From positions 269,792 through 333,791 of the forward strand of contig CAZVHP010000001.1 in the NCBI GenBank assembly GCA_964627305.1: DNA of 64,000 nt. The letters run 5' to 3'. How positions within the stretch are numbered: position 1 is the first letter of the stretch; each line of letters starts with the position of its first letter. Origin of the DNA: an uncultured Ignavibacteriales bacterium (lineage in GTDB: Bacteria > Zixibacteria > MSB-5A5 > GN15 > FEB-12). The notes under the pieces are model-generated. The model did not search any database and was not told the DNA's origin. It saw only the letters and a program-made list of their open reading frames with translations. Position numbers and translations under genes: made by a program. This document shows positions 5,741 to 30,253 of this stretch, one piece after another.

Positions 5741-5811
5741 TGGGAGATCGTCCAATGGTAGGACATGCGGCTCTGGACCGTAGAATCGGGGTTCGAATCC
5801 CTGTCTCCCAG
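5741..5811 (+). tRNA. tRNA-Gln (anticodon CUG)
   Basis: Manual cloverleaf: acceptor TGGGAGA/TCTCCCA, D arm GTCC-AATGGTA-GGAC, anticodon arm TGCGG-CTCTGGA-CCGTA (U33, anticodon CTG, purine 37), variable GAAT, T arm CGGGG-TTCGAAT-CCCTG, discriminator G. CCA is not encoded. Confidence 0.9.
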
Positions 5812-5988
5812 CTTCTCATTTGCGGGAACGGCTGGTAGCGTTCCGCTCACTCCCCTGAGTCGTTTCTCTTTGGGGCTAAGAGACTTAACCGGACTTGGTT
5901 AATCCTGTATGGCCGGGAACAAGATTCCACGCCGACCGTTTGTGTAGTAACGAAACATCCCGCAAGGGACAGCGAAAGGTATACCGTA

Positions 5989-22651: not shown

Positions 22652-24415
22652 TTACATCTTGAGCTGTTTACGGGCGAGTTCGCCATACAACGCAGATCGC
22701 TCCAGCAATTGCTCATGCGTGCCCTGATCGACAATCGTCCCCCTGTCCATTACGATGATCCTGTCAGCGTCGCGAACCGTAGCCAGCCGGTGGGCAATGA
22801 TGATCGATGTCTTTCCCTTAAGTGCCTTGTCGAGCGCCTGCTGAATCAATTCTTCGCTGCGCGTGTCCAGCGATGATGTGGCCTCGTCCAGCAGCATGAT
22901 GGGCGGATCCTTCAGTATGGCCCGCGCCAGGCACACTCGCTGACGTTCCCCACCAGAGAGAGTCACCCCGCGCTCGCCAACTTCGGTCTGGTATCCATCG
23001 GGCAAAGATGCAATGAAATCATGGATGTTCGCGATTCTGGCAGCTCGAATGATCCGGTCCAGGTCGGCATCAGGATCGCCATAGGCGATGTTCTCCCGCA
23101 GCGATGCCTTGAACAGCAGCGGCTCCTGATCGACCAGCCCAATCTTAGATCGCAGATCTTTCACCAGCACTCGTCTGACATCAACGCCGTCTATAAGAAT
23201 GCAACCCCGGTGAGGATCAAAGAAACGCAGGATCAGGTTGATGACCGTTGTCTTGCCGGCCCCGGATGGTCCGACAATGGCAACCCGTTCGCCCGGCGCG
23301 ATTGACAGCGACACATCCCTAAGCCTGAAGCCGTTGTCGTCATACGCAAACGACACTCCTTCAAACACGATATGGCCGCGCACATGTTTGAGGTGCATCG
23401 GGTTCTCATCCTCGGCCACCGCCGGCCCAATGTCAAGATACTCAAAAATGCGATGTACCGAGGCCATCGCAATTTCTACGTCGACATTGATCTGCGCCAG
23501 ATCCTGGATCGGCGAATAGAGATAGCCGACGAGAATGTAGAACGCCAGCAGAGTCCCCAGCAGCACGGTATCGCCGGCCACCAGATAGGCGCCCCAGGCC
23601 AGTACTGCAATCGGTGCCAGCATCGTCACGAACTGCACCAGGTTGATTGCCAGCGACGTGAAGACACTGTTTCTAATGTACAGTCCGGTCAGGGATTTCA
23701 GGACACCGTCGGTAGTCTCTTTCTCGCGACGCTCCTGTGCAAACGCCCGGATCGTCCGAATGGCCGAGAACGACTGCTGGTAGCGCCCGGACAACCGTGC
23801 GATCGTCTCCTGCAGCGCCCGGCTTATCCGATGCAGCGACAGCCCGAAGCGATTGGAGAGGAAGATCGTAATCGGCACCGGGATGAGTACTATCAACGTC
23901 CACTTCCAATTCCACACGAGAAGAACCGTAAGGACACCCGCAACCAGCAGGACGTTCATGACAAACATCAACAGCGTCGATGACAGCAGTTGCTGAACGC
24001 GCTGCACGTCCGAGAGCAGCCGTGACATTATTTCCCCGACCTGATTCCTTTGAAAGAAGCGCAGCGGCACATTGGTAAGATGATCGAACAACTCGCTGCG
24101 CATATCCGCGATGATACTCGCCCCTACCCGACCGGCCAGGTAGTCGCGCACCACGGAGAGCCCCAGATTAGCGAGATAGATTCCGGCCAGAAAAGCGCCG
24201 TAGTAAACCACCGGCGTGGCATTCGGGTTGCCCCCTGATTCTCGCTGCTCGGCCAGATCGGGAATGAGATCATCGATCAGGTACTTCAGGGCCAGCGGCA
24301 TGGCAATCGTGACGACCGTCAAAGCGATCATCGTGGCGAACAGCAACAATTCCAGTTTCCAGTAGGGCCTGAGATAGTACCAGAGCCGCCTACGCGTTTT
24401 GGCGTCGGGTATCAT
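22652..24415 (-). CDS. ABC exporter, fused permease/ATPase (MsbA-like half transporter); no N-terminal peptidase domain
   Basis: Six-TM domain followed by Walker A GPSGAGKTT, signature LSGGERQR and Walker B IMLLDEATS. Start set at ATG 24415 (GGGAG upstream), overlapping the preceding gene by 26 nt. Confidence 0.9.
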   Translation of the reverse strand: MIPDAKTRRRLWYYLRPYWKLELLLFATMIALTVVTIAMPLALKYLIDDLIPDLAEQRESGGNPNATPVVYYGAFLAGIYLANLGLSVVRDYLAGRVGASIIADMRSELFDHLTNVPLRFFQRNQVGEIMSRLLSDVQRVQQLLSSTLLMFVMNVLLVAGVLTVLLVWNWKWTLIVLIPVPITIFLSNRFGLSLHRISRALQETIARLSGRYQQSFSAIRTIRAFAQERREKETTDGVLKSLTGLYIRNSVFTSLAINLVQFVTMLAPIAVLAWGAYLVAGDTVLLGTLLAFYILVGYLYSPIQDLAQINVDVEIAMASVHRIFEYLDIGPAVAEDENPMHLKHVRGHIVFEGVSFAYDDNGFRLRDVSLSIAPGERVAIVGPSGAGKTTVINLILRFFDPHRGCILIDGVDVRRVLVKDLRSKIGLVDQEPLLFKASLRENIAYGDPDADLDRIIRAARIANIHDFIASLPDGYQTEVGERGVTLSGGERQRVCLARAILKDPPIMLLDEATSSLDTRSEELIQQALDKALKGKTSIIIAHRLATVRDADRIIVMDRGTIVDQGTHEQLLERSALYGELARKQLKM

Positions 24416-25823
24416 CCAGCCACTCCCGGAAGTAGTTGCGGGCCGCAAATGCTCTTGCCTCCGGCGCCAGGGCCGTCCGCATTCGTTCCAGCCGCTCGTT
24501 CATCATGCTTTCCCACAGACGAACACCATCCCCGCTGAGGTCCCGCGAGGGGACCACCTGCATGCTTGCTTCGTACTGGTCGGCTGCATCTTTCCACCAG
24601 TCACCAGAGTTGAACTCCGCACCGAACTGTGACTGATACCACTCTCGCTGGTCGTCCACGGCGCATCCCGGAAAGTGCATGTAGCCATGAGGCGCCCATA
24701 TCAGATACGAGGGCGACTCCTCCAGCTCTCGATCCATGAACGCAAAGGTCTCATCCAGCGTCTGCCGCGTTTCACCCGGATGATTGAATATCACATTGGC
24801 TCGATGCATTATGCGATGCCTGGTTAGAAGACGGCTGACATGCCGAAACTGCTGCAGATAGCGCTCCGGGTGACGAGTCTTGTTCATGAGTCGGAGCATA
24901 TCCAGAGAGCCGCTCTCCAGCCCAAACTGAACCTCCACCTTCAGGTCCGCAAGCATGGCGATATCTCTCTCATCAAGATACTCCGGGCGCGTTTCGAAGA
25001 CAATCCAATAGTCATCTCCGCGCTCGCATAGCTTGCGAAGGAACTCCCTGCGCCACGACGGTCTCATGCCAAAGCAGGCATCGGCGATTGCGATTGAGTG
25101 AGGCGTCAAGAAGTCGTACAGGCGTTCCATTTCATCGAGGGCGGCAGCGACCGTGTACGACCGCCAGCGTCGGTCCTTGGTCGGCTCCATGCAGAACGAG
25201 CAGGCAAACGGGCATCCCCGCGAGAGATACAGGCACGGCCCCTTGATGCCCTCCGGTACATGTTCCCGAACGAAATCGGCCAACAGGTCCCACCGATAGG
25301 GAACGAAATGCTCTTCGCCGACTGCCGCTCCCCGGATCACCCGCGTTGCATTCGGTCGCCCCTCCCGGGCGTGTCGCTCGGCCACGTGTTCCAGCGCCAG
25401 CTCACCCTCGCCGCAGACCACAAAATCAAACAGCCCGCTGCCGTTGTCAAATTCGTTTGGCCGGGCTGTGACGTGGTATCCGCCGACGACTATGAGTTTC
25501 TCAGGGAACAGATCCCGACAAATCCGAGCCACAGACAGCGTCGCACGATACGACAGCGATGTCCAGCAGGAAATCGCCAGAATATCAAACTCGTGCGATA
25601 GAAGAAAGCGCCGAACGTGTCGCTCATAGCGGCGGATTTGCGTGGGGCTGTTGGGGCGTCCGATCTGCTGCTCGAAATCGGCATATGACACCCCGAAGCG
25701 CCGGCTCAGGTACGATGCCAGCCAGACCAGCGACGTCTTGAGTTCCGCCCGCTCCATCCACGGTGGGTAGAAAAAGCAGGACGGATGAAGTAAGAGAATG
25801 TGCGGCGTCTTACCGCTGGTCAT
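24390..25823 (-). CDS. B12-binding-domain radical SAM enzyme
   Basis: N-terminal Rossmann-like B12-type domain (ILLLHP...ILAISCWTS...LIVVGGYHVT) followed by YLSRGCPFACSFC (CxxxCxxC). ATG 25823 overlaps the upstream gene stop by 14 nt. Confidence 0.8.
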   Translation of the reverse strand: MTSGKTPHILLLHPSCFFYPPWMERAELKTSLVWLASYLSRRFGVSYADFEQQIGRPNSPTQIRRYERHVRRFLLSHEFDILAISCWTSLSYRATLSVARICRDLFPEKLIVVGGYHVTARPNEFDNGSGLFDFVVCGEGELALEHVAERHAREGRPNATRVIRGAAVGEEHFVPYRWDLLADFVREHVPEGIKGPCLYLSRGCPFACSFCMEPTKDRRWRSYTVAAALDEMERLYDFLTPHSIAIADACFGMRPSWRREFLRKLCERGDDYWIVFETRPEYLDERDIAMLADLKVEVQFGLESGSLDMLRLMNKTRHPERYLQQFRHVSRLLTRHRIMHRANVIFNHPGETRQTLDETFAFMDRELEESPSYLIWAPHGYMHFPGCAVDDQREWYQSQFGAEFNSGDWWKDAADQYEASMQVVPSRDLSGDGVRLWESMMNERLERMRTALAPEARAFAARNYFREWLDDTRRQNA

Positions 25824-26925
25824 CAGGTACGACCACCCGTTCGTGCTCGGCCCTGAACGGTGCCAGAAGTTCGGCCATCTGTTCAGTGATGGTCGGCTCG
25901 ATCCCGCGCTTCCGTTCAATCTGGTAAATGCAGTACGGGTTGTTAGCCCGTTCGCCCGAAGCTGACACCGAGGTCGTCATACAGCCACCCCTGCACAGCG
26001 GCAGGAACTGACAATCGCGGCACTCACCAGAGGCTGTGTCGCGCGTGAACTTACGATTGTACAGGAACCTGGTCGGGTCGTTCCATATCCTGGTGAACGA
26101 TGATTCCCGAATATTGCCCTCGACGAACTCCGGTTGCTGCGACAGACAACCCTTCACATCCCCGTTTGAGCAGATCCCGGCCACGCGCGTGCCGGCATAG
26201 CATCCCAAGTACGGCACATCATCCAGCAGCTTGCTGCCCTTGCAGCCGTAATAGCCGATATTCTCGCCGACATCGATCGGGACCCGTCCGTCTCTCTTGA
26301 GTTCCATGATCTTGTCGATCATCCGTTCGAACAACTCAAGATCCATCACCATGTCCTTCTGCATCCGCCCGGTGACAGTCGTCATCTGGATCCGCCATTC
26401 GCTGGCGCCGACATCAACAAGGTCCTTGTAGATGTGATCGAGGTCGTCAATGTTGACCCGTGAAACCTGCGTGACAGCCTCGAACCGCTGCCCGGCTGCG
26501 CGCAAGTGCCGCATCGCATTGAGTGCTCGCTCGTAGCTTGACTTGTGCTGACGGATATAGTTGTGCACATCGCGGCTGCCGTCGAAACTGACCCCGATAT
26601 TGCCGAAGCCAATGTCCACGAACTGCCGGGCGATGTCCTCAGTCACCATGTAGCCGTTCGTGATCAGAAAAGTGCCTATCCCGCGCTCTTTGCTGCGACG
26701 CGCCAGCACCGGCCAGTCCTTCCGCATCAGCGGTTCCCCGCCGGACAGTGTTAACCCCCGGCAGCCAAGATCCGCCAACTCATCGATCAGTGCCAGCGAC
26801 TCCTCTGTCGTCAGTTCATCACTGCGCGGAACACCGGCAGAAGTCCCGCAATGGATACAACGCATATTGCAGGCATAGGTGATCTCCCATACGACTTGTT
26901 CTGGGAAGAACTTGAACTCACTCAT
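25810..26925 (-). CDS. Radical SAM/SPASM-domain enzyme (no N-terminal extension)
   Basis: CxxxCxxC at residues 19-26 (YACNMRCIHC). C-terminal SPASM-type Cys pattern GCYAGTRVAGICSNGDVKGC ... CRDCQFLPLCRGGC. Its SD GGAAAGGAG lies inside the last codons of the upstream gene. Confidence 0.85.
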   Translation of the reverse strand: MSEFKFFPEQVVWEITYACNMRCIHCGTSAGVPRSDELTTEESLALIDELADLGCRGLTLSGGEPLMRKDWPVLARRSKERGIGTFLITNGYMVTEDIARQFVDIGFGNIGVSFDGSRDVHNYIRQHKSSYERALNAMRHLRAAGQRFEAVTQVSRVNIDDLDHIYKDLVDVGASEWRIQMTTVTGRMQKDMVMDLELFERMIDKIMELKRDGRVPIDVGENIGYYGCKGSKLLDDVPYLGCYAGTRVAGICSNGDVKGCLSQQPEFVEGNIRESSFTRIWNDPTRFLYNRKFTRDTASGECRDCQFLPLCRGGCMTTSVSASGERANNPYCIYQIERKRGIEPTITEQMAELLAPFRAEHERVVVPDDQR

Positions 26926-26928
26926 CTG

Positions 26929-28308
26929 TTACTCCTTTCCGGCGGTTCGCACTTCGGAGGCCTGTTGCGCCTGTTGACGACGCTGCATCTCCTGCTGTCG
27001 CGAAACCGCGATAATTTCCAGCATCGGCTGCAGGTTGTGCTTCCAACCCTCGCACATCTGCTCATCGGACAGCCCTCGGTCCACCCGACGGGCCGGACAG
27101 CCCCCCATGCAGACAGGAAGGACACTGCACTCAAGGCATCGACTGTCTTCAAAGGGGGTATATTCAAAAAGCCGCGTGAAATTCGGATGCAGCAAGTTGA
27201 TTTCATCCATAATCGTTCCCGAGGCTTTGCTCTGATCACCGACATCATTCCAGCAGCGGTAAAGCCACCCCTCGGGATCGACAAGAAACGCGTTGACCGT
27301 CTGCGTCATGCAGAACGTCGAAATCGGCGAGGGGAGTTTCTGGATCACGAAACCCCGCTGGAGCAGTTCATGGTAGTACTGCACCTCAATCTGGGAGAAA
27401 TCCGCCACCTCATAGCAGGCCTCAGCGATATTCGAGCAGACCTGTGACGCCGCCTCTACCATGCCGAAATACACCCCCACTTTGTCCCGCAGCCCCGCTT
27501 CCACAAGCTCGTCGAGCAACTCGCTGATGTCATCGACGGTAAACGACTTGTCGACATTTACACGAACCCCGATCTGCATCTTCCGTTCAACGGCCGCCTG
27601 TACGTTGACGATAATGCGATCAAAGCTGTCACCGCCGTTTCGCAACGGACGCTTCGTATTGTGAAGCCGCGCCGGGCCGTCCAGAGTCACCTGCGCGCTG
27701 AAGACTCGAAGCCCCATCAGTCTGTCCACTGTCTCCGGGGTCAGCAGGTAACCGTTGGTGACAATCGATGAGCTGTAGTCAAATTTGTACTCCTGTCCAA
27801 GATCGAGAAAAGACTCCGTGAGATCCTCGATCACGTCCAGAGCCAGCAGCGGCTCCCCGCCGTACCAGCCAACATCGAGCGCTCCGATTTGTCTTGCCTG
27901 CTTTTCAACAAACTCTATGACGGCCTCGATGACTTTCGGAGACATCTTCGTGGCAGTGTGTTTCTCAAAACAATAGGTACAGGCCATGTTGCAGGCCATT
28001 GTCGGTGCTATGACCAGGCCCAGCCCCGTGCGATTGAATCGGCTGAGGTTATGAGCCAGTTTGAGCCTGGTGATCTCGTCCACATCACCAGTGTGCACGA
28101 AACACCCATACTCGAGCTGCTTCAGTAATTCGCTTTCCGATTCGGTCAGCTCAGGTGAAGGATTCCGCTCGAGCTTGGCTGCCAACTGCTGATACACCTC
28201 CAGGTTCTCCTGTGTCATCAGCGCCACCGCGCCGGATAGGGCATTGTAGGCGAGGACATAACCATCCTGCCACGGGTGGAAATGGTTGTATCGAGATATC
28301 TTAGGCAT
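26929..28308 (-). CDS. Radical SAM/SPASM peptide maturase with about 100-residue N-terminal (RRE-position) extension
   Basis: CxxxCxxC at Cys106/110/113 (MACNMACTYC). N-terminal YNALSGAVALMT segment as in AslB/sactisynthase-type enzymes. C-terminal CLECSVLPVCMGGCPARR SPASM motif. Confidence 0.85.
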   Translation of the reverse strand: MPKISRYNHFHPWQDGYVLAYNALSGAVALMTQENLEVYQQLAAKLERNPSPELTESESELLKQLEYGCFVHTGDVDEITRLKLAHNLSRFNRTGLGLVIAPTMACNMACTYCFEKHTATKMSPKVIEAVIEFVEKQARQIGALDVGWYGGEPLLALDVIEDLTESFLDLGQEYKFDYSSSIVTNGYLLTPETVDRLMGLRVFSAQVTLDGPARLHNTKRPLRNGGDSFDRIIVNVQAAVERKMQIGVRVNVDKSFTVDDISELLDELVEAGLRDKVGVYFGMVEAASQVCSNIAEACYEVADFSQIEVQYYHELLQRGFVIQKLPSPISTFCMTQTVNAFLVDPEGWLYRCWNDVGDQSKASGTIMDEINLLHPNFTRLFEYTPFEDSRCLECSVLPVCMGGCPARRVDRGLSDEQMCEGWKHNLQPMLEIIAVSRQQEMQRRQQAQQASEVRTAGKE

Positions 28309-28456
28309 GATAAGTATCCATGGTGCGAACTTCGAGACGAGGGTTACCAGTGTCTTTGCGCCGGCTCTCCGTCTGTTACGTGGTCCTTGCTATCTCCTGC
28401 CGGCCGATCAGCATCTCTCAGGGAAGTCGTTGTGACACGACAACCGAAGAACTGGC

Positions 28457-28483
28457 TCGCGCCGTGCGAGGGCCACGGCGCGA
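28457..28483 (-). terminator. Perfect 10-bp GC-rich hairpin between precursor gene and first maturase (partial terminator / mRNA-stabilising element)
   Basis: TCGCGCCGTG-CGAGGGC-CACGGCGCGA, starting 20 nt after the precursor stop. On the mRNA it is followed by GCCAGUUCUUCGGUUGUCGUGU, which is U-enriched but not a clean U-tract. Confidence 0.55.
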
Positions 28484-28503
28484 ACCATAGTCTCTGCAAT
28501 CGC

Positions 28504-28626
28504 TTAGATCTCGACCGGATCAATACCGTACAACGGCTTAATCCCGCAGTAGGTCGAGCACTTCAGTCTGCAGTCGCCGGTAACCGACTGACGCAGCGTG
28601 TTCTGCGGATCGATCAAATAGATCAT
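28504..28626 (-). CDS. 40-aa Cys-x3-Cys-x3-Cys peptide, candidate RiPP precursor (not in the ORF track)
   Basis: ATG 28626 preceded by GGGAGGTG plus a 6-nt spacer. Translation is MIYLIDPQNTLRQSVTGDCRLKCSTYCGIKPLYGIDPVEI with stop TAA at 28504-28506. 31 of 40 codons end in G/C, like the neighbouring genes. It is the first gene of the rSAM operon. Confidence 0.8.
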   Translation of the reverse strand: MIYLIDPQNTLRQSVTGDCRLKCSTYCGIKPLYGIDPVEI

Positions 28627-28845
28627 TCAATTCACCTCCCTTCGATCATTCCGCGGTTCACTCCTGTGCCTTACCCGTCCGTATTTCCATTCTGGCGGCA
28701 AGGCTCACCTCGTGGCACGTAGCACCACATAGCTATGAGTACGGGACGGCCCGCAGGGGACCTCCCGGCTATTAAGATTCGACCGGTTCATACTTCCAGA
28801 TGATAGCAGTTTCAAAGATGTTATTCTAACTCTCGATTATCTGGT

Positions 28846-28875
28846 ATTATAATCACATGACCCGCACGCGGTCAA
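28846..28875 (-). promoter_or_regulatory. Sigma70-like promoter of the precursor/rSAM operon
   Basis: On the minus strand: TTGACC (28875-28870), 18-nt spacer, TATAAT (28851-28846). It sits in the only AT-rich patch of the region and implies a 5' UTR of about 210 nt. Confidence 0.55.
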
Positions 28876-29272
28876 GAGATTCCACGTCGCTCGCCACGAG
28901 TCTCTTACGATCTGAATGCGAGGGCTGTTCGACAGCATCAAAAGGAAACCGCTTGTACAGCACCCGGTGCCCCCTGCTTGCACCAATCAACTGCGATGTT
29001 TCACATCGTCCTGGATGACGTCGAGTTTGGCACCGACAACTCCGGGCAGCGGAACCTGAAGTTTGAGGTTGTTAATCATCACTCCACGGGGTACAATGAT
29101 GTGGACCACTTAGTGAACACGGCACCGGTCGCTCGCTGGCAATGGCCCGATAGCGATACATGAAGCCAGAGGCCTGATCAGCCGAGCGGATTCACGCGCA
29201 CGCTGCAGTCGTGAGTGCCCCTCCGCTCTGCTCCGGCGCGTGCAAACCGCAAGAGAAGGAGGCACAATTGCG

Positions 29273-30253
29273 ATGCTGAGCCGGAAGGATGCTCGAGTTG
29301 TCGAGCGACCAACCCGCGAAAGGCTGGCTCTTCGCACGTTCACGGCCGTGCTCTGTCTGCTCGTGACGGGGGATATCTTGGCTCAAGACACATTCGAGCC
29401 ACCCGCCTCTGGCTTTGAGACCGGCTGGGAGCGGTCCGAGCAACTGCTTACCTTCATCGGGCATGATCTCTACGCGCATATCAACGGCGGCGCCGAGTTG
29501 TATCACGAGTTCGGATTCGACCGGCTCCATGTTCAGTATTACCGGAAGGCTGACCAGGAACTGACCCTTGAGGTGTACCTGATGACCGACCCCAACGCTG
29601 CCCTCGGACTCTACCTGCTGAAGGCGGCCCAGGAGAGTCCCGTTGACGGCATCCGCGAACGTAACAGCGGCGATGCTTCGCAGATTGTCGTCGTCAAGGG
29701 AAGTGCTTTTGTCAGAATCAACAACTACACTTTCACCGACTCCCTGTTGCCGACGATGGTCAATCTGGCCAACACGGTGACCGTGAATCTTCCCGATGAG
29801 CCGGCTCCAGCCTTGCTCAGCCGTTTGCCCCTCACAGGTCTCCAGCACGGGACTGAGCGCATCATTCGCGGTCCCTACGCACTGGCCCAGGAAGCGAATC
29901 TCGGTCAGGGCGACATCCTGCAACTGGCTGGCCGCATTTGGGGGGTGCTCGGACGATACACTGATCAGCATGACTCGACCTTCACGCTTATCGAAGTCCG
30001 CTATCCCGATCCGGAGCGCGCAGGCGCCGCATTCAATCATCTGATGCACAACCTTAATGAACTGCAGACCATCATAGAGAAAGAGCGCCTCTCATTCACT
30101 TTCCGGGACCATCGCGGCCGATTCGGTGAGGTGACGGTCCGGGACACGATAATGGTATTGAACCTGGATATGTACAGCCGTGACAGCCATCCGGCTGCCG
30201 GCGATGCTGATACCACGACCGCCTCTGGTCCTTCTGATGCTCCGAAACCCTGA
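29273..30253 (+). CDS. Secreted hypothetical protein
   Basis: AAGGAGG 10 nt upstream of ATG 29273. Signal-peptide-like N terminus (LALRTFTAVLCLLVTGDILAQD) and high GC3. No motif recognised. Confidence 0.6.
   Translation: MLSRKDARVVERPTRERLALRTFTAVLCLLVTGDILAQDTFEPPASGFETGWERSEQLLTFIGHDLYAHINGGAELYHEFGFDRLHVQYYRKADQELTLEVYLMTDPNAALGLYLLKAAQESPVDGIRERNSGDASQIVVVKGSAFVRINNYTFTDSLLPTMVNLANTVTVNLPDEPAPALLSRLPLTGLQHGTERIIRGPYALAQEANLGQGDILQLAGRIWGVLGRYTDQHDSTFTLIEVRYPDPERAGAAFNHLMHNLNELQTIIEKERLSFTFRDHRGRFGEVTVRDTIMVLNLDMYSRDSHPAAGDADTTTASGPSDAPKP

Follow-up and report, generated by a model that had tools for sequence, protein, structure and literature searches.

Spliceotides are peptides made on the ribosome and modified after translation (RiPPs), matured by spliceases such as PlpX, radical S-adenosylmethionine (rSAM) enzymes with a SPASM domain that excise a tyramine equivalent (C8H9NO) at an X-Y-G site and leave an α-keto-β-amino acid in its place; hundreds of binary splicease pathways work without a Y protein (PMC11414181, PMC11626197, PMC11002830, PMC9811515, PMC10533398). 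Type I spliceases need the Y protein, whereas in the binary ones a helix in a long leader is the activator (PMC11414181). LYG and MYG are natural splice sites of PlpXY (PMC10533398, PMC9811515), the PlpA1 core ends in FPIRPLYGLPI (PMC9484694 supplement), GPIRPLYGLPI and AVAAMYGVVFP have been engineered as tags (PMC10533398), and PlpXY acts on a core tag of 10 to 11 residues without the leader (PMC9811515, PMC10533398). A second relevant group is formed by the Clo7bot peptides of Clostridium botulinum and its relatives, encoded as seven or eight tandem copies (MKYIIKPSSNKNWYCYCSDC…) with the layout M-x-[Y/F]-I-x-x-P; we found no paper on their chemistry. Finally, in thuricin-type peptides each N-terminal Cys pairs with a C-terminal acceptor, giving a nested hairpin (PMC12093266). 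Here we describe a 40-codon gene that shares features with all three groups. It heads an operon with two rSAM/SPASM enzymes (rSAM1 and rSAM2) in a 64,000-nucleotide stretch, hereafter the window, of contig CAZVHP010000001.1 from an uncultured Ignavibacteriales bacterium (Zixibacteria in the GTDB lineage). We show that this is a true gene whose protein product is under purifying selection. It very likely encodes the precursor of a RiPP from an undescribed family, and the evidence leans towards a hybrid that would combine a Cys-cross-linked core with an α-keto-β-leucine produced by splicing.

A conserved small gene upstream of rSAM1

The gene had been proposed as a candidate precursor by a first-pass annotation made from the letters alone, and its reading frame, Shine-Dalgarno (SD) sequence, stop codon, three Cys (positions 19, 23 and 27) and 31 of 40 codons ending in G or C are all exactly as given there. 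The third-position G/C share, claimed there to match that of the flanking genes, compares with 0.68 to 0.73 in the four downstream genes, and the 148-aa antisense open reading frame (ORF) at 28276..28722 (+) does appear in the mechanical ORF list. None of the public assemblies of the locus calls this antisense frame; the 40-aa gene is called there instead. The description of the gene as uncalled is correct for the ORF track used in that annotation and wrong for NCBI, JGI, ENA and Logan, where the identical 40-aa protein is a “hypothetical protein.”

By itself, a 40-codon ORF is not beyond chance, and its significance comes from conservation. The window peptide matched no family in Pfam or NCBIfam, and an initial search returned a single relative (P0002, 54% identity). 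Conservation upstream of orthologous rSAM genes, the check that the first-pass annotation had recommended, gave a clear result: one or two homologous small ORFs were found directly upstream of rSAM1 orthologues (51 to 61% identity) in 10 of 11 close loci, from metagenome-assembled genomes (MAGs) of Ignavibacteria, Zixibacteria and Calditrichota. A profile built from 18 upstream peptides and searched against 5.8 billion proteins retrieved 209 family clusters (defined at 50% identity), and searching 1.84 billion representatives exhaustively with HMMER (E ≤ 0.001) gave 211, nearly all of them of 29 to 50 aa. No retrieved cluster carried a Pfam domain, and “hypothetical protein” was the only name in use for any of them. 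This is an annotation gap of about 210 peptide clusters lacking a Pfam or NCBIfam model.

Over 43 distinct gene copies of the family, the nucleotide entropy of the conserved motifs was 1.39 bits at codon position 3 versus 0.10 to 0.52 at positions 1 and 2, and all 43 had a GGAG/GAGG/AGGA SD motif 4 to 16 nt upstream; therefore, selection acts on the translated product. At the metagenome loci reached from the peptide that had enough downstream sequence (8/8), the maturases lay next to the peptide gene(s), rSAM1 followed by rSAM2. Up to three peptide genes precede the maturases of a single locus (four on three short contigs), and these tandem paralogues have conserved ends and hypervariable Cys cores. 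Tandem hypervariable copies with invariant ends and an adjoining maturase are what is generally seen for RiPP precursors. Taking together the loci reached from the maturase and those reached from the peptide, we are highly confident that this small translated gene is a true RiPP precursor heading a radical-SAM operon, as first suggested.

It is most improbable that there is no modified product at all, i.e., that the ORF is a regulatory leader peptide or an unmodified Cys-rich peptide (metal-binding or with disulfides) that merely sits beside rSAM genes. A hairpin located between the ORF and rSAM1 could be part of an attenuator, and there are orphan copies without neighboring enzymes, but the selection is on the protein sequence, the hairpin follows the tandem copies generally and not the last one alone, and the synteny with a maturase that bears a RiPP recognition element (RRE) is strict across phyla. 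The same is argued by the tandem hypervariable paralogues with invariant ends, typical of RiPP precursors, and by the frequency of odd Cys counts (129 of 226 peptides, three being the commonest count), which also led us to reject a disulfide-only peptide. A cofactor precursor like those of PQQ or mycofactocin was discarded on account of the hypervariable cores, the multicopy genes and the presence of an exporter.

Anatomy of the peptides and the P-x-Y-G tag

Residues and spacings were counted in 120 family peptides. The family is defined by its two ends, an M-I-Y-L-I-D-P N terminus and a P-[L/M/C]-Y-G-[I/V] motif near the C terminus, and not by the CX3CX3C layout that the first-pass annotation had put forward. 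This layout is present in the window peptide and is common (79/120), but the number of Cys before the C-terminal motif goes from two to six within a hypervariable core, with CX3C spacing in 227 of 275 Cys-Cys gaps. The N-terminal consensus across the family is M-[I]-[Y/F]-L-[I/V]-[D/E]-P, in which Pro7 and Tyr/Phe3 are found in all 120 peptides, Asp/Glu6 in 119 and Leu4 in 117, and the leader spans only 7 to 14 residues. In 83/120 peptides, position 15 holds the first Cys; a four-residue insertion makes the window peptide an outlier, with its first Cys at position 19. The linker from the leader to the first Cys (residues 8 to 18 in the window peptide, 28573-28605, minus strand) has a nearly constant length, in this family as well as in Clo7bot. 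This near-fixed length suggests that a molecular ruler spans the distance from the RRE to the active site, one that the window peptide stretches. Position +2 of the CX3C units holds Thr far more often than the background of 6% (39% over all units, 47% in the last one), and this Thr may be a cross-link acceptor. At +3, Lys or a hydrophobic residue is favored; the window peptide has C23-S-T-Y-C27.

The C-terminal end is the most constant part. P, Y and G are invariant in 120/120, and when the check was extended to 231 peptides, P-x-Y-G was found in every one, with x being Leu (73%), Met (16%) or Cys (11%). Behind P-x-Y-G-[I/V] there is a terminal tail of 2 to 9 residues, rich in Pro, Asp and Ile. 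Counted from the last Cys, the tail has 10 to 16 residues and one to three Pro, whether the peptide has two Cys or six, and the preferred distance from the last Cys to the Tyr is 6 residues (76/120). The tag reads GIKPLYGIDP in the window peptide and AIKPLYGVPI or YPMYGVPI in relatives; the splice tag of PlpXY is PIRPLYGLPI. This segment had at first been taken for the Cys-free acceptor tail of a sactipeptide, a view that has to be abandoned given its constant length over two to six Cys, its Pro content and the invariant P-x-Y-G that matches the XYG tag of spliceotides. A thuricin-like nested hairpin is excluded by the constant short tail.

The broader alternative is a pure thioether RiPP (sactipeptide or ranthipeptide), with the Cys as donors, both SPASM enzymes making thioethers, maybe as a heterocomplex like TrnC/TrnD in which only rSAM1 has a canonical RRE, and P-x-Y-G as an unspliced acceptor or recognition motif. 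The two adjoining rSAM/SPASM genes speak for it, as do the CX3C periodicity, similar to the i, i+4, i+8 donors of thuricin-type peptides, the Thr enrichment within the Cys repeats and the fact that a single complex of TrnC and TrnD acts on the precursors of thuricin CD (PMC12093266). Nevertheless, we regard it as unlikely. Y and G are invariant beyond any Cys, x is limited to three residues, and the sequence context matches that of a proven splice tag, while a tail of 10 to 16 residues containing Pro, at either two or six Cys, does not agree with a nested hairpin in which every donor has its own acceptor.

The two maturases

rSAM1 has an invariant CX3CX2C plus nine further invariant Cys in its SPASM region. 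Its AlphaFold2 model (pLDDT 83) has an N-terminal beta3-alpha3 domain with the RRE topology (residues 8-91; strands 8-12, 18-22 and 27-31; helices 33-48, 56-67 and 78-91), and the top structural match is CteB, aligned over the full length (458 columns), followed by TigE, anSME, SuiB and ChlB. This domain, together with the full-length CteB alignment, identifies it as an RRE-bearing maturase. The best NCBIfam match was the Clo7bot maturase family TIGR04334 (359.5 bits versus a cutoff of 600, aligned over 3-435), then TIGR04463, CefB and FlmE/OhkG. Membership in the CXXX-repeat-target group, raised by the first-pass annotation, was not borne out, since rSAM1 reached 61 bits on TIGR04115 (cutoff 350) and the window peptide did not match TIGR04118. 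Judged by these scores, rSAM1 is a sister of the Clo7bot maturases, and rSAM1 and the leader fall in a Clo7bot-like superfamily, outside the Clo7bot family itself. By analogy with SPASM relatives, the chances that rSAM1 makes thioethers are about even.

The minimal leader characterizes the rSAM1 superfamily as a whole. Distant rSAM1 homologues with Cys-rich peptides starting M-x-[YFW]-[ILV]-[IV]-x-P were seen in Collinsella, Clostridia, Selenomonadaceae and a second locus of the Ignavibacteriales MAG that holds one of the close loci (L006). The peptides of these distant homologues are often encoded downstream of the maturase (L046 7350-7577, L074 3410-3571, L079 4315-4428, L044 9115-9240 and others).

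rSAM2, like PlpX, begins directly at the CX3CX2C core and has no RRE; its set of SPASM Cys is full. Its top NCBIfam matches were TIGR03913 (237 bits, cutoff 592) and TIGR04103 (227 bits, cutoff 725). When the window rSAM2 and seven orthologues were ranked against NCBIfam, these two families were the top two in 8/8, at 40 to 55 bits above TIGR04133, NirJ2 and AhbD. PlpX itself scored 677 bits on TIGR04103 and 322 on TIGR03913, and the next family only 124; because of this sharp fall, the two models mark the splicease clade. The PlpX query was machine-read from the PMC9484694 supplement and contains errors, which probably explain why it stays short of the TIGR04103 cutoff. By BLASTP, rSAM2 and PlpX share 31% identity over 349 aa (E = 1e-41), and the PlpX query finds the rSAM2 orthologue in every close locus. 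Going by these comparisons, the nearest relatives of rSAM2 are the tyramine spliceases, yet it stands outside the curated families.

The distribution of rSAM2 parallels that of the tag. rSAM2 is present in 21/21 close cassettes, whose peptides have P-x-Y-G, whereas at 66 loci of distant rSAM1 homologues no rSAM2- or PlpX-like gene was found, bar one trivial 41-bit match, and the peptides found there lack P-x-Y-G. The Clo7bot-type relatives thus have rSAM1 alone and no such tag, another point, along with the rank of the splicease clade in all eight rSAM2 proteins, that the pure thioether explanation does not accommodate. Two distant loci have somewhat similar C termini: D-Y-G-C closes each of four tandem Clo7bot-like peptides of a Halanaerobiales MAG (L043, 4964-5699), and S-Y-G-V closes one peptide of C. 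botulinum (L019, 4426-4551). No splicease-like gene is visible at either locus, although the L043 sequence stops 1.3 kb past the maturase. The activity of PlpXY on a core tag without the leader fits an RRE-less enzyme that reads a conserved core motif. We think that rSAM2 probably, if by no means surely, splices at LYG (L32-Y33-G34). The likeness of rSAM2 to spliceases had escaped the first-pass annotation. With a P-x-Y-G tag and a splicease-like rSAM2, maturation by rSAM1 alone would miss the probable signature modification.

rSAM2 might instead carry out another radical reaction on the Tyr, such as an oxidative decarboxylation/cross-link like that of MftC, a C-C bond like that of PqqE or possibly a Cys-Tyr or Pro-Tyr link, in which case the product would have a new type of cross-link and no ketoamide. 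MftC and PqqE both act on a conserved Tyr of a small peptide. They are among the rSAM2 matches (157 and 102 bits), with PqqE also among the PDB matches, rSAM2 is under the cutoff of every curated family, and the last Cys has a preferred distance of six residues to the Tyr. On the other hand, the splicease families score 70 to 90 bits over MftC and 125 to 150 over PqqE, the invariant Gly after the Tyr is a specific hallmark of XYG splicing, and the motif is internal here and C-terminal in MftA. All in all, such a reaction appears improbable, even more so than the pure thioether RiPP.

Several observations weigh against the hybrid with a spliced Tyr. Everything beyond the reality of the gene and its synteny is inferred. 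The rSAM2 scores, far below the curated cutoffs, point to a separate lineage, for which a different activity, Tyr-directed or not, is possible. The solved structure nearest to rSAM2 by sequence is SkfB, a thioether synthase (E = 5e-17), which together with a match to StsB (122 bits) favors the pure thioether RiPP. The covariation of rSAM2 and P-x-Y-G is confounded by phylogeny, a single clade being compared with the rest. The cassette has no small gene resembling a Y protein, and a leader of 7 to 14 residues has no activating helix. Nor does the cassette encode a leader protease. The fold of rSAM1 does not reveal which reaction it catalyzes, since its structural neighbors make thioethers, cyclopropanes, C-C links or formylglycine. 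Lastly, two orphan precursors with an intact leader and LYG tag have no maturase within 5 to 10 kb (P0002 at L001 483-593, L002 925-1035 and L096 2135-2245; the other at L097 5285-5401). One P0002 copy, on a 35-kb JGI contig, is downstream of secreted Peptidase_S74 and Peptidase_M6/dockerin genes, an intriguing neighborhood if the product is a protease inhibitor.

The cassette, its predicted product and known systems

The positions of the gene, of its parts and of the surrounding elements are collected in Table 1. The 21 close loci with enough sequence all have one gene order: peptide(s), rSAM1, rSAM2 and then an ATP-binding cassette (ABC) exporter. In the window, there are only 3 nt from the stop codon of rSAM1 to the start of rSAM2, and the following genes overlap by 14 nt (rSAM2/B12-rSAM) and 26 nt (B12-rSAM/ABC). 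The gene for the B12-rSAM enzyme, with B12-binding and Radical_SAM domains and TokK as the nearest solved structure, is found after rSAM2 and ahead of the exporter in 9 of the 17 related cassettes where it could be assessed, including that of the window, and is absent from the other 8. Inspection by eye revealed no peptide feature that tracks its presence. A methylation (+14 Da) is plausible, though the gene is missing from about half of the cassettes.

Table 1. Coordinates of the precursor gene, its parts and the neighboring elements in the window
Feature	Coordinates	Strand	Remarks
ABC exporter	22652..24415	-	587 aa; permease + ATPase, no peptidase domain; conserved at the cassette end
B12-binding radical SAM enzyme	24390..25823	-	477 aa as publicly called; putative C-methyltransferase, accessory
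rSAM2	25810..26925	-	371 aa; radical SAM/SPASM without RRE, putative tyramine splicease
rSAM1	26929..28308	-	459 aa; RRE + radical SAM + SPASM maturase
GC-rich 14-bp hairpin	28453..28487	-	Begins 17 nt past the precursor stop codon
Precursor peptide gene	28504..28626	-	40 aa + stop; translation MIYLIDPQNTLRQSVTGDCRLKCSTYCGIKPLYGIDPVEI*, TAA stop
Putative splice tag G28-I-K-P-L-Y-G-I-D-P37	28516..28545	-	Predicted tyramine excision at L32-Y33-G34
Cys-repeat core C19-RLK-C23-STY-C27	28546..28572	-	Probable rSAM1 substrate
Leader motif M1-I-Y-L-I-D-P7	28606..28626	-	Probable binding site of the rSAM1 RRE
Shine-Dalgarno sequence GGGAGGTG	28633..28640	-	6-nt spacer to ATG
Promoter-like site TTGACC-18 nt-TATAAT	28846..28875	-	11/12 consensus match only; ~215 nt upstream of ATG

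The hairpin behind the precursor gene is unusually stable (dG of -42.9 kcal/mol for a 91-nt region, z = -4.3, 0 of 200 shuffles equally stable), and the terminator scan did not call it because it has no T-run. Almost all precursor genes of the family, each copy of the tandem arrays included, are followed within ca. 25 nt by a perfect GC-rich hairpin of 10 to 14 bp. Its position is conserved, its sequence is not, and the T-run is usually absent (window; L006-L018, L085-L097). It would act as an attenuator or as an mRNA stabilizer between precursor and enzyme genes. The 5′ untranslated region (28627-28840, minus strand, ca. 214 nt) is AT-rich at its 5′ end and has no unusual fold (z = +1.06), and Rfam gave only a subthreshold snoRNA match over 27800-29400, which includes this region. 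Among the close cassettes, a Zixibacteria chromosome (L007, CP070766.1, 6001-10700) is alone in having no precursor within 6 kb; the gene for its ABC exporter is broken into fragments of 204 and 181 aa, which suggests a decaying cluster. The divergent DUF6599 gene upstream (29240-30253, plus strand) was considered as a part of the cassette and rejected, as it is not conserved at other loci, and it is probably unrelated to the operon. The only tRNA in the window is a tRNA-Gln (CTG) at 5741-5812 (+).

The maturation that we propose would start with the minimal leader, MIYLIDP, docking as a beta-strand on the RRE of rSAM1, which would then modify the variable Cys repeats, most likely by intramolecular thioether cross-links as its SPASM relatives do. 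rSAM2, as a PlpX-related splicease, would recognize [I/V]-[K/Y]-P-[L/M/C]-Y-G-[I/V] and remove a tyramine equivalent (C8H9NO, -135.07 Da) at L32-Y33-G34, leaving in the backbone an α-keto-β-leucine preceded by Pro31. Where the cassette encodes a B12-rSAM enzyme, one or more C-methyl groups would be added, and the ABC transporter would export the cross-linked ketoamide peptide. The hairpin after the precursor would keep its mRNA in excess over that of the enzymes. The computed monoisotopic masses are 4515.267 for the unmodified 40-mer and 4380.199 for the spliced one, with shifts of -2.016 per thioether and +14.016 per methylation.

To our knowledge, spliceotides are the only known ribosomal route to α-keto-β-amino acids. 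Such residues have proved themselves as warheads of protease inhibitors and also provide a bio-orthogonal handle. By analogy, the product would most plausibly be a protease inhibitor, of serine or cysteine proteases, since spliceotide ketoamides inhibit both types and the unspliced peptides are inactive (PMC11626197). According to reviews, native spliceotide products are still elusive (PMC9811515). If our proposal is true, inhibitor discovery and engineering would gain a compact and evolvable scaffold in these precursors of 33 to 45 aa, with their seven-residue leader, fixed tag and naturally hypervariable cores. The cassette also offers a tractable relative for the unstudied superfamily of Clo7bot-type maturases. 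The lesson for mining is that the chemistry of a second enzyme can be indicated by those residues of a Cys-rich precursor that are conserved most, the Cys pattern being less informative here. A further possibility, attractive and rather doubtful, is a new RiPP class in which the seven-residue leader would recruit an RRE-bearing Cys-cross-linking rSAM that also acts as the missing “Y protein” for an RRE-less splicease, one complex that would make thioether-caged Pro-(α-keto-β-Leu/Met) protease inhibitors, widespread in uncultured Zixibacteria, Ignavibacteria and Calditrichota. No natural spliceotide scaffold would then be smaller, and none before it would have joined splicing with Clo7bot-type chemistry.

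The combination of enzymes, the minimal leader, the family signature and the host range are undescribed in the papers and model libraries that we searched; they may be partly catalogued in Scott et al. 2022 (Chem), a study that reportedly surveyed YG-rich precursors in 189 genera and defined the splicease types. The literature search gave nothing on TIGR04334, TIGR04463, FlmE/OhkG, Zixibacteria together with SPASM or the motifs YLIDP and PLYGI, and the groups concerned go unmentioned in the main text of a compendium of 15,000 rSAM enzymes (PMC10288494).

With the maturases of SCIFF peptides and ranthipeptides (CteB, PapB), rSAM1 shares the architecture including the RRE, CteB being the best full-length structural match and PapB and SCIFF families being among the profile matches. 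However, the identity is only 18 to 19%, the scores are far under the cutoffs (125 versus 340 and 85 versus 425), and the precursor has neither a SCIFF nor a CX3D motif. Thuricin CD (TrnA/B, TrnC/D) resembles our system in the Cys at i, i+4 and i+8, in the two rSAM/SPASM enzymes encoded together and in the RRE-dependent maturase, but the tail is here too short and too constant for one acceptor per Cys (the thuricin spacing would overrun the C terminus), the number of Cys varies, and rSAM2 lacks an RRE and has spliceases as its nearest relatives.

The similarity to Clo7bot (TIGR04333/TIGR04334) extends to the maturase architecture, with TIGR04334 as the best family of rSAM1, to peptides that start M-x-[YF]-[IL]-[IV]-x-P and have their first Cys near position 15, followed by short-period Cys repeats, and to several tandem hypervariable copies upstream of the maturase and an ABC transporter downstream. 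In contrast, TIGR04333 (cutoff 31 bits) does not match the window peptide and gives 18.2 bits for one family member, with C. botulinum controls at 40 to 60; rSAM1 is well under the TIGR04334 cutoff, and Clo7bot loci have no rSAM2 or B12-rSAM and their peptides no P-x-Y-G. As for the spliceotides (PlpA/PlpX/PlpY of Pleurocapsa and the binary Rha/Ras/Rcs of Rheinheimera), the precursors here share with theirs an invariant X-Y-G with Leu or Met as X, the I-K-P-L-Y-G-I found here is close to the I-R-P-L-Y-G-L-P-I of PlpA1, and Cys flank the site as they do in Rheinheimera cores. An RRE-less rSAM/SPASM enzyme adjoins the precursor gene in both cases, and rSAM2 and PlpX share their two best families besides the sequence identity. 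The differences are that the precursors here have 29 to 50 aa and a seven-residue leader, whereas the known ones have Nif11/NHLP-type or other long helical leaders; that there is no Y protein and rSAM2, far under the curated cutoffs (TIGR04103/IPR026482), forms a separate lineage; that the cassette adds an RRE-bearing Clo7bot-like maturase and often a B12-rSAM; and that the system described here is hosted by uncultured Zixibacteria, Ignavibacteria and Calditrichota-type bacteria, its splicing being a prediction. The closest known kinds are, therefore, two: the spliceotides for the tail and rSAM2, and the Clo7bot-type Cys-rich peptides for the leader, the core and rSAM1.

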